Shown one piece after another: positions 1-4,530 of a DNA stretch of 31,072 nt. The notes under the pieces are model-generated. The model searched no databases. It worked only from the letters and a program-made list of their open reading frames with translations, and was not told the DNA's origin. How positions within the stretch are numbered: the stretch's first letter is position 1; the number at the start of each line of letters is the position of its first letter. The stretch lies in contig JAYZQJ010000042.1 in NCBI GenBank assembly GCA_036149055.1, positions 1 through 31,072 on the forward strand, written 5' to 3'. Made by a program: the position numbers and the translations under genes. The DNA is from Myxococcota bacterium. GTDB taxonomy: Bacteria > Myxococcota_A > Polyangia > Polyangiales > Sandaracinaceae.

Positions 1-280
1 GACCCCCTCGCCCAATCGCGGTGATCCGGATGCGGCCACTGGACGACGCAGACGCCCGTGACCCTCGGAATGAACGCCATTTCGTGGCTGACGCTCACGG
101 CCAACATGCTCGCCTGCCTACGCATCAACGCGCCGGTCGCCCGTCGCGCTGCAAGGCTGGCTACCGGCCTGCCGGGCTCGGCTTTGACCGGGTGGGATTC
201 GCACCCACAAGACACCTCTTCCAAGTTTCGGTCGCTACCGCATCACTCCTTCCCCTCGGACCAGCAGTGCCTGGTCGCAC
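1..280 (-). mobile_element. Group II intron, 5' part (domain I); continues off the left edge of the window
   Basis: The minus strand begins GTGCGACCAGGCACTGCTGGTC at 280 (GUGYG consensus). It then shows domain-I-type motifs: GGGTGCGAATCCC, AGCCTTGC...GG-GCGA-CC tetraloop...GCGTAGGCAG, and AGCCACGAAA. A stem-loop GGTCAC-GGGCG-[TCTGCGT]-CGTCC-A-GTGGCC (63-34) has a loop complementary to the last 6-7 nt of the 5' exon. The RT ORF and domains V/VI are not in the window. Confidence 0.85.
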
Positions 281-336
281 CTGCGCCTCTGCGCCTCTGC
301 GCGAGACAAATTCGAATCCCACGCAGAACCGCCGAG
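281..336 (-). repeat. REP-like imperfect hairpin with tandem GCGCAGAG units (intron target site; possible terminator of the upstream gene)
   Basis: Minus-strand arms CTCGGCGGTTCTGCGTGGGA (336-317) and TCTCGCGCAGAGGCGCAGAG (306-287) pair at 18 of 20 positions including 3 G-U, with a 10-nt loop. It starts 4 nt after the stop codon at 343-341. Confidence 0.7.
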
Positions 337-340
337 GAGA

Positions 341-2505: not shown

Positions 2506-4530
2506 GTGCGCGTCTCGACTCTCCTCCTCCTCGCGCTGCTGGGCTGCACCGGGCCGCAGACCGCGAGGCGCACCGCGGGGCCGCTCACGAGCGAGCCGGA
2601 GATCCCGCCGGCCCAGGCCACGACGTCGCCCCCCGCCGAGCGGCTCGCCTCGACTCACCGCATCGACGACCCGCGGACCTGGGCGCGGCTCGCGGCGCGG
2701 CCGGCGACCGAGACCTTCGCCCGCACCGAGGTGGTGAAGTTCCTGATCGACCTCGAGGACGAGCGGCGCCTCTGGTTCACCGACACCGAGCGCTTCGAGA
2801 TCCACTTCCACTTCGCGCGCGACGTGCTCGGAGTCGACGAGAGCCACGGCGACTTCAACGTGCGCGAGTACCGCCGGCCGGAGCGGCGCTTCGTGATGGG
2901 CACGCTGGTCCACTACCTCGACCCGGATCTCTGGGCGTTCGAGATGGTCGCCGGCGACAACCTCGACGGGGCGCGGGTGCTCGAGGCGTTCGAGCAGGTG
3001 CAGGGCGCGGTGTTCTTCGGGGATCGCCTGCGCTACCGGGCGATCAGCCCGCTGCACGAGCGGCGCACCGAGGGCCTCGGCGCGCGGCTGCCGCGGGTGA
3101 GCGCGGGGGAGGTCTTCCGCGGGGTGCGCTATCAGCCGCTGACCCAGGGCGTCGCCTACGGCACGCTGCGGCTCGTGCGCGGGCCCCTCGACGCGGCGAG
3201 CGTGCGGCCGACCGACATCCTGGTGCTCGAGCACCTCCCGGACGGGATCCCGGTGTCGAGCGCGGTGATCAGCCAGGAGCTGCAGGCGCCGCTCGGCCAC
3301 CTCGCGCTGCTCTGCGCGACCCGCGGCACCCCGAACATGGGGCTGCGCGACGCGCTCTCCGACCCGGCGATCGCCGCGCTCGATGGGCAGCTGGTGCGGC
3401 TCGACGTGGCCTCGCAGGAGCACGCGATCCGGGCGGCGACCCGGGCGGAGGCGGAGGAGGCGTGGGCTGCCCGCCGGCCGGCGCAGCCGCTGACCCCGCA
3501 GATCGATCGCGGCTTCGCGGCGCTGACCGCGGTGTGCGACGCCCGCATCGGCGACGCGCCCCGGATCGGCGCGAAGGCGGCCCAGCTCGGCGAGGTCTGC
3601 GCGGAGGGGCTGCCGACGCCGGGCGGCTTCGCGGTGCCCTTCGCGCACTACCTCCGCCACCTCGAGCGGCACGGGCTCGCGGGCGGGCTGCGCGCGATGC
3701 TGGAGGACGCGACGTTCCGCGGCGACCCGCGGGTCCGGGCCGAGAACCTCGCCCAGCTCCGGGCGGTGATCGCGCGCTCGCCGGTCGACCCCGCGCTCCT
3801 GCGCGAGGTGCGCCGCCGGATCGACGCGTTCCCGGGCGAGCCGCGGGTGATCTTCCGCTCGAGCACCAACGCCGAGGACCTGCCCGGGTTCACCGGCGCG
3901 GGGCTCTATCGCTCGGTGGTGGTGAGCGGCGGGGCCTCGGACGCGGAGCTCGCCGACGCGCTGCGCGAGGTGTGGGCGAGCGTGTGGCTCTCGGGCGCCT
4001 ACGAGGAGCGAGACTGGTACCGCATCGATCACCGCGAGGTCGCGATGGCGGTCCTGGTGCAGCCCTTCGTCGACGGCGCGATCGCCAACGGCGTCGCGAT
4101 CACCGCCAACCCGTTCTACGAGGCGCGGCCCGGCTACTTCGTGAACGCGCAGGCGCTCGGGGGGAGCGTGACCGGGGCCGCGGGCGACGAGATCCCCGAG
4201 CAGCACCTCATCTACACCTACGCCGACGACGGCCCCGAGCTCGAGCTGGTGAGCCGCTCCACCCGGGGCGACGGCGCGCTCCTGCTGCGCGAGCCCGAGC
4301 TCATGCAGCTCCACGCCGCCCTCGCCCGCCTCGACTTCGCGCTCACTCCGTACTGGTCGGGGCGCGCCAACGCGGTCGACGTGGAGTTCCTGGTCGCCGG
4401 CCCCGATCGGCGCGTCGTCATCCTCCAGGCCCGCCCGTTCTGCGTCCGCTACACCGAAGGCCAGCGCGCGGTGCACCGCCGCCCCCAGGCCGCCTGCCCC
4501 GCCCGGCTGTACCCGCCTCGCGCGCCCTGA
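2506..4530 (+). CDS. Lipoprotein with phosphohistidine-swivel-like and PPDK_N/PEP-synthase ATP-grasp domains (dikinase-like)
   Basis: Signal MRVSTLLLLALLGC, His-domain motif QAPLGHLALLCATRGTPNM, and ATP-grasp motifs IGAKAAQLG, PTPGGFAVP, FRSSTNAEDLPGFTGAGLYRS, VWASVW, MAVLVQ, DVEF, ILQARP. Start is GTG 2506 (alternative ATG 2494). Confidence 0.88.
   Translation: MRVSTLLLLALLGCTGPQTARRTAGPLTSEPEIPPAQATTSPPAERLASTHRIDDPRTWARLAARPATETFARTEVVKFLIDLEDERRLWFTDTERFEIHFHFARDVLGVDESHGDFNVREYRRPERRFVMGTLVHYLDPDLWAFEMVAGDNLDGARVLEAFEQVQGAVFFGDRLRYRAISPLHERRTEGLGARLPRVSAGEVFRGVRYQPLTQGVAYGTLRLVRGPLDAASVRPTDILVLEHLPDGIPVSSAVISQELQAPLGHLALLCATRGTPNMGLRDALSDPAIAALDGQLVRLDVASQEHAIRAATRAEAEEAWAARRPAQPLTPQIDRGFAALTAVCDARIGDAPRIGAKAAQLGEVCAEGLPTPGGFAVPFAHYLRHLERHGLAGGLRAMLEDATFRGDPRVRAENLAQLRAVIARSPVDPALLREVRRRIDAFPGEPRVIFRSSTNAEDLPGFTGAGLYRSVVVSGGASDAELADALREVWASVWLSGAYEERDWYRIDHREVAMAVLVQPFVDGAIANGVAITANPFYEARPGYFVNAQALGGSVTGAAGDEIPEQHLIYTYADDGPELELVSRSTRGDGALLLREPELMQLHAALARLDFALTPYWSGRANAVDVEFLVAGPDRRVVILQARPFCVRYTEGQRAVHRRPQAACPARLYPPRAP

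Follow-up and report, generated by a model that had tools for sequence, protein, structure and literature searches.

A class E group II intron that probably homes into host-specific tandem repeats by base pairing with two successive units

The 31,072-nt window studied here begins at base 1 of contig C42 in assembly G000 of a Myxococcota bacterium (9.9 Mb, 73% GC, 289 contigs), and its left end raises the question of how a group II intron selects its target. An earlier note on this DNA had placed there the beginning of an intron directly behind a hairpin in a tandem repeat, and had proposed a lineage that joins a IIB-like domain I to the hairpin-adjacent insertion of class IIC introns and homes into a dispersed REP-type repeat family. 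A review distinguishes three target specificities for bacterial group II introns, namely homing sites, terminators, and attC sites (PMC4424553).

The intron at the left end of the window

Positions 280 to 1 of the window, read on the minus strand, are the 5′ end of a group II intron that is lost at the contig edge. Rfam model RF02005 (group-II-D1D4-6) matches positions 201-1 with 76.5 bits (cut-off 49), a match that is itself cut off by the contig end, and it also matches a metagenome contig, L135, with 107.5 bits, so that the claim of a group II intron is borne out by a covariance model. The coordinates in the earlier note were correct throughout: the intron begins with GTGCG at 280, the 5′ exon ends in ...GAGGCGCAG, the loop at 52-46 reads TCTGCGT, and EBS1 lies about 230 nt into the intron. 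The fragment (1-280, minus strand) comprises most of domain I of a class E intron, as argued below, and has one difference from L135 in 280 nt. Its 5′ splice site, GUGCG, occupies 276-280 (minus strand); three copies in G000 agree inward from this point, and their exons diverge outside the repeat. Alpha (GCCC, 174-177, minus strand) was read from the sequence in the Ib loop, with its partner alpha-prime (GGGC) at 13-10. An upstream ORF of 216 aa on the same strand (341-991, minus) has its stop codon 60 nt before the intron and could provide read-through transcription of it; by eye, its N-terminus resembles that of a lipoprotein, and its tail is of low complexity and rich in Arg and Asp.

G000 holds three 5′ junctions of this intron, in C42 itself, in C41 (3 differences in 280 nt), and in C198 (broken after 47 nt), and BLAST with a relative, G003, located four domain V/VI ends, in C242, C143, C73, and C72, all at contig edges. 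No assembled copy of the intron body was found in G000 (0 matches to Rfam RF00029), as expected of a collapsed multicopy element, and the window's own two exons occur together on no single contig. The whole element, 2,020 nt long, is present in L135 (L135:6-2025), which shows no difference from the four 3′ ends in G000. The RT and domains V/VI, which the earlier note had suggested seeking to the left of the contig end, were thus both found, the RT in L135 and domains V/VI in L135 as well as at the contig edges of G000. The RT ORF (L135:642-1934) encodes an intact protein of 430 aa with a YADD motif (TIGR04416, 344 bits; cut-off 300); it ends at domain V, gives RT-family matches only, and has no endonuclease domain. 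RF00029 matches L135 over the full model length with 36.4 bits and an E-value of 4e-6, below the cut-off of 40, and the intron ends in ...CUACUCGAC, the same as in relatives. The element is an intact, multicopy group II intron with at least four copies in G000.

L135 comes, along with L082 and L124, from a metagenome scan that yielded at least 120 loci (L064-L183) and constitutes a sample; the sequencing runs that hold the L135 element are mostly marine and belong to several studies. Contigs of one RNA run (X15) cover positions 1-1321 and 1535-2029, and DNA may be present in that run. A second, more distant group II RT was noticed in the same samples (L135:1110-1570, runs X6 and X8). A junction pattern gave 47 matches over species-representative genomes, none with RT or intron similarity, and the intron 5′ pattern gave none over viral contigs. 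A PF00078 profile search of G000 returned one RT, L001 (C177:9781-10401), which is retron-like by eye and was rejected as the RT of the element, being unlike that of L135. Locus L231 (G734) was left out of the analyses. The intron copy of C198 (C198:62677-62848, locus L010) is cut at 47 nt by a sequence that starts with TGTTG; this sequence is common to the ends of C205, C289, and C253 and is probably an IS end.

The longer, IIB-like domain I (class E/F-style) described in the earlier note agrees with the RT tree, in which the L135 RT and S.me.I4 form one clade (SH-aLRT 98; a quick tree of 50 rows with a single class E reference), rather than with an ordinary class C RT. The L135 RT shares 43.8% identity with S.me.I4 vs 29-33% with class D and g1-g3 references taken from PMC3552965; the tree has no class C row, and g4 and basal-F references are absent from it. 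Class C was weighed by score only, with 127.7 bits to the GsI-IIC RT by phmmer vs 339 bits to S.me.I4 by BLAST, scores that stem from different programs. Class F and g1-g4 are disfavored by the low identity to the g1, g2, and g3 references and by the YADD motif, which contrasts with FADD in g2. The label S.me.I4 is indirect: L273 is 99.2% identical to a disrupted copy on S. meliloti GR4 plasmid NC_019847.2, S.me.I4 is placed on pRmeGR4b (PMC5894124), and the equation of the two plasmids rests on the strain and the disrupted RT. The closest RT relatives, P0002-P0013 (70-85% identity), are known here from proteins alone. The domain V loop is 5 nt long (GAAAU) in the predicted fold, and an alpha-prime in a terminal loop is a feature of IIE and IIF introns (PMC3753933). 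These sequence comparisons support the assignment to IIB-type class E, not class C.

The octamer repeat and the insertion junctions

The target broken by the window copy, a short leader followed by CGCAGAGG-CGCAGAGG-CGCAG (281-305, minus strand), belongs to a dispersed, intergenic repeat, (CGCAGAGR)n, that is expanded in G000. CGCAGAGRCGCAG occurs 259 times in 96 clusters vs about 1.9 occurrences expected under an order-5 Markov model of G000; trimers account for 379 of the genome's 496 runs, which are frequently spaced at about 100 bp in arrays and divided into CGCAGAG and CGCAAAG subfamilies. A crude caller, which classes 79% of the genome as coding, puts 18 of 423 runs in coding DNA. The repeat is host-specific, with 246 matches in G000, 31 in G018, and at most two in each of the other 59 genomes searched. 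G018 is the only other searched genome with an expanded octamer, its matches often forming close inverted pairs; with this query, the intron RT was found neither in G018 (82% complete) nor in G001.

We regard the target as REP-like, and no description of the octamer repeat was found in the literature searched. A classical REP has a palindromic unit and an associated RAYT transposase, whereas the trimer is a direct repeat; 28 of the 68 larger arrays mix strands. A link between the repeat and Y1 transposases was rejected, none of the nine PF01797 genes lying within 10 kb of a repeat run, and so was a link to four-helix-bundle genes, none of the 10 being closer than 1 kb. One of the two GxxExxY (PF13366) genes is flanked by inverted octamer trimers, at distances of 22 and 37 nt (C79:64442-64903); the gene in C30 is not.

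All five readable 5′ junctions (C42, C41, and C198, plus L082 and L124 among the matches listed) lie in unit 3 or 4 of a repeat run and have GRCGC at -15 to -11. All seven distinct 3′ junctions (C242, C143, C73, C72, L135, and two from other sequencing runs) start with AG and then leave the repeat. The insertion point common to all readable junctions is CGCAR/AG in the last unit (the slash marks the insertion point). No 3′ junction continued by another octamer was found, which reflects the last-unit bias. Empty look-alike sites read CGCAG-AG without a break, and CGCAG stands before each of the five look-alikes of the C242 3′ exon, indicating that the intron breaks a unit cleanly. The earlier note's proposal of homing into a dispersed repeat family agrees with the collected copies, every one of which sits in the octamer repeat (5/5 5′ and 7/7 3′ junctions). 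The junctions were read from fragments; the 5′ and 3′ sets are partly the same events, and p-values based on them are not independent. C242 is likely the 3′ partner of C198, where the occupied unit (C198:62416-62676) has four octamers, as against three in the otherwise near-identical unit that lies one period further upstream in the same array. The extra octamer could stem from slippage or from duplication of 8 bp when the intron inserted.

Reading of the target and competing explanations

We consider it probable that this class E intron retrohomes into the last unit of host (CGCAGAGR)n repeats by ordinary RNA-DNA base pairing. EBS1 (CUGCGU, 46-51, minus strand), in the loop of the id3 hairpin, would pair with RCGCAG of one unit, represented in the window by IBS1 (GCGCAG, 281-286, minus strand, exon -1 to -6), which we located within the third octamer by sequence reading and from the junctions of the G000 copies. 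The EBS1-IBS1 pairing, already drawn in the earlier note, is supported by covariation in relatives: CACCCG faces the exon CGGGTG in G003, CGUGCU faces AGCACG in G639, and CGUGUU faces AACACG in G746. A putative EBS2 (GCGUU, 73-77, minus strand), just 3′ of kappa, would pair with GRCGC one unit upstream. The corresponding putative IBS2 of the window, GGCGC (291-295, minus strand, exon -11 to -15), spans the end of unit 1 and the start of unit 2.

The segment after kappa was also compared with exons in relatives, where pairing with exon -9 to -13 was the best register in 48 of 62 exon/intron pairs (two copies of the window intron included), with at least 4 bp in 41. Most relatives have CUAU against AUAG in the exon. 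The window intron carries UGGCGUUC, whose pairing with the exon amounts to 2 bp in the usual register and to 5 bp (GCGUU with GRCGC, -15 to -11) when shifted one base outward; one-base shifts of IBS2 are known in IIB1 and IIB2 introns (PMC8643678). Among L064-L183 and related loci, a large class E subclade has a fixed EBS2 (CUAU), with TAG at -11 to -9 in 85 of 119 distinct exons among the matches listed. Its EBS1 loops are rich in U and in many cases fit the exon badly, so that targeting in this subclade may rest mainly on EBS2. A role of this TAG as a stop codon is not supported, since its frame stays open over 90 codons in 20 of 79 cases vs 14 and 13 in the other frames.

Site counts in G000 bear on the putative IBS2. 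RCGCAG/A alone occurs at 3,953 sites, 311 (8%) of them in repeats and 2,878 in coding DNA, and together with GRCGC at 152 sites, 108 (71%) of them in repeats. Last units account for 134 of the 311 repeat sites (43%) without the IBS2 rule and for 93 of the 108 (86%) with it, the pass rates being 15 of 130 middle units and 93 of 134 last units. Seven last-unit insertions out of seven have a p-value of about 0.003 without EBS2 and about 0.35 with it; this result played no part in choosing EBS2, which was chosen after the target was seen, and the events are few. Allowing wobble (G-U) at every position raises the count to 814 sites, of which only 13% lie in repeats. The L082 exon has an A at -1, a mismatch with EBS1, L082's own EBS1 being off its contig. 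Unit 1 is preceded by a pyrimidine leader, and both sites would be available only from the third unit on, which would explain the preference for last units.

The least certain step of the scheme concerns the 3′ exon. Delta U (52, minus strand) could pair, in a IIA-like manner, with the A that begins all seven 3′ exons, because the coordination loop appears to be zipped shut. MFE and centroid folds predict the id3 arm (34-63, minus strand) as a continuous helix of GGUCAC (63-58) and GUGGCC (39-34) with one bulged A (40), which is no more stable than the folds of shuffles (z -1.0). The coordination-loop strand N-GAA-GRY, kept in 55 of the 62 pairs, is not kept in the window intron, where the canonical EBS3 position is a C opposite the A at +1. 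Loss of the loop with EBS3 and delta-prime would, by prediction only, be a derived change within class E; the EBS3 bulge is missing in UHB.I2 too (PMC7923331). Relatives often have A at +1 and obey EBS3 loosely, so that the A at +1 says little in favor of delta pairing. As for completion of the process, the cDNA would be primed by the replication fork because the RT has no endonuclease domain, as described for endonuclease-free introns (PMC4424553), and the intergenic, numerous, host-specific repeats would serve as a renewable safe harbour.

The hairpin beside the window copy is an interrupted stem of 4+3+13 bp (286-337, minus strand) that is specific to this site. Positions 345-281 fold at -36.2 kcal/mol on the intron strand (z -4.6; 0/200 shuffles as good) and at -22.1 kcal/mol on the opposite strand (z -2.0; 8/200), confirming the 20-bp hairpin of the earlier note and its preference for the intron strand. 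If the IIC-like position pointed out in that note reflected the mechanism, a DNA hairpin ahead of IBS1 would be required, and the strength and strand specificity of the window hairpin speak for this, as do the inverted arms of the G1026 target and reports of class E and CL1 introns behind attC-like hairpins, in a role described as speculative (PMC7923331). However, with DNA parameters the last 45 nt of the exon fold at -9.8 kcal/mol in the window copy, and the values of the four remaining sites are -5.5, -2.5, 0.0, and -7.0 kcal/mol, with no comparable stem and in one case none at all; a stem-loop does not precede every insertion, as it would in class C. Occupied sites are also no more structured than empty ones, since 97 empty third-unit sites have a median of -6.9 kcal/mol and 22% of them are as stable as the window's. 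Moreover, the hairpin covers exon -6 to -15 and would thus bury the putative IBS2, the RT is not of class C, and L082 and C198 already largely refute such dependence, leaving it very improbable. The feature common to the sites is the octamer sequence, not structure, and the hairpin is probably incidental, formed where a chance upstream complement pairs with unit 1.

Three other explanations retain the repeat as the relevant feature in different ways. If only the 7-nt RCGCAG/A were recognized, by EBS1 and delta, and selection purged genic insertions, intergenic repeats would remain as occupied sites. Selection surely contributes, most RCGCAG/A sites are coding, and EBS2-IBS2 is dispensable for in vitro splicing of IIE and IIF introns (PMC3753933). 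But just 311 of about 1,075 non-coding sites lie in repeats, yet 5/5 junctions do; this account does not predict the last-unit bias, and EBS2 covaries with exons in relatives, so we find it unlikely. Recognition of the upstream units by the RT protein or by a repeat-specific DNA structure, not by EBS2, would accommodate the shifted EBS2 register, and the intron-encoded protein helps target recognition in group II introns generally (PMC4424553). Against it, the post-kappa segment has changed from CUAU of the clade to the complement of the octamer repeat, and the corresponding segments in G746 and G1026 agree with the differing repeats targeted there; we give this explanation a similarly small chance. 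A single insertion spread among arrays by recombination or duplication, without repeated homing, seems extremely unlikely: arrays do have spacer sequence in common, and two 3′ flanks in G746 agree over about 100 nt, but the 5′ flanks diverge just beyond the trimer and the 3′ flanks within a few bases, and one site belongs to the CGCAAAG subfamily. We conclude that the intron likely reads two successive units by base pairing, and we reject the hairpin mechanism.

Parallel cases and known systems

Among 20 full-length relatives with both flanks, 17 lie in non-periodic sites and three in tandem repeats. G746 contains two full copies in (AACACG)n, two 5′-truncated copies followed by AACACG, and one short remnant without it; next to its EBS1 (CGUGUU), the G746 intron has an EBS2 (UGUU) that, by eye, pairs in the usual register with the unit before, and the repeat occurs 26 times in G746 vs 0-4 times in four other genomes. 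In G1026, a single copy sits in (CGCCAAGAR)n, its EBS2 matching the preceding unit over 7 bp, also in the usual register (by eye); the repeat occurs 20 times in G1026 and was not found in four other genomes. The window, G746, and G1026 introns do not form one clade (p-AU 3e-27 in a quick tree; 4 of the 29 loci chosen for the origins tree have no intact RT frame), and well-supported branches require at least two separate origins of repeat homing in class E. The earlier note's "intron lineage" is therefore right about repeat homing but both too narrow and too wide, in view of these separate origins and of the 17 relatives found elsewhere. Two further loci were noted. At L012:3310-5361 (G003), an internal inversion of about 215 nt disrupts the RT of a related intron, which adjoins an IS21-like ORF pair; at L014 (G055:C316:15991), an intron 5′ end has a domain V-like sequence of opposite orientation no more than about 200 nt behind it.

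These cases raise the broader idea, to which we assign even chances, that homing into short tandem repeats is a recurring class E strategy in which EBS1 and EBS2 converge on the same word and read two successive units, separately against an octamer, a hexamer, and a nonamer, accompanied here by loss of the coordination loop and a IIA-like switch of 3′-exon recognition. There is precedent for class E introns, for homing into multicopy IS elements, for REP-targeting IS elements, and for a IIB-to-IIA switch. In the literature searched, including passages of PMC4424553, PMC8919778, PMC7306698, and PMC12584367, we found no report of a group II intron whose homing targets are short tandem repeats or REP-like ones; subscription papers and supplements may bear on this point. 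The proposed mechanism is one of homing, but onto host-specific repeats with about 100 suitable sites, and a IIB-type intron would thereby gain, without recognition of structure, the spread usually credited to class C. Although conserved in class E and F introns, EBS2-IBS2 pairing can be dispensed with in splicing, and its involvement in retrohoming has only been proposed (PMC3753933). The putative EBS2 sharply predicts that the third unit is a target and the second is not, and the insertions found in nature agree with this. If true, a natural switch from IIB to IIA in the 3′-exon recognition of a mobile element would bear on the origins of the subclasses.

The closest known systems are other class E introns such as S.me.I4 and Cl.be.I2, with which the window intron shares the RT clade, an RT-X architecture without an endonuclease, a domain I matching RF02005, a 5-nt domain V loop, alpha-prime in a terminal loop, and an EBS1 together with, in the window intron, a putative EBS2 (PMC3753933). 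It differs from them in its target, apparently two successive units of a host tandem repeat, in the one-base shift of the putative EBS2 pairing, and in the predicted collapse of the coordination loop. Class C introns, which insert after terminators or attC hairpins, are similar in occupying many intergenic sites, and the window copy does follow a hairpin behind a stop codon; unlike them, the window intron has an RT of another class, a 6-nt EBS1 plus a putative EBS2, no hairpin at other sites, and no U-tract. The class D introns RmInt1 and RmInt2 also combine endonuclease-free retrohoming with a repeated, harmless target, but theirs is a mobile element, ISRm2011-2 or the inverted repeat of ISRm17 (PMC3552965, Table S1), whereas that of the window intron is a tandem array of short non-coding units. 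REP-targeting IS elements (PMC1525189) likewise exploit a host repeat family, through DNA transposases, in contrast to the RNA-guided retroelement proposed here. Finally, the class B intron C.te.I1 of Clostridium tetani offers a parallel as a IIB-derived intron that moved to IIA-like delta-IBS3 pairing, as demonstrated by mutagenesis (PMC4024640); C.te.I1 keeps a loop-like motif and serves alternative splicing, whereas in the window intron the loop is predicted to be closed and the element is apparently mobile.
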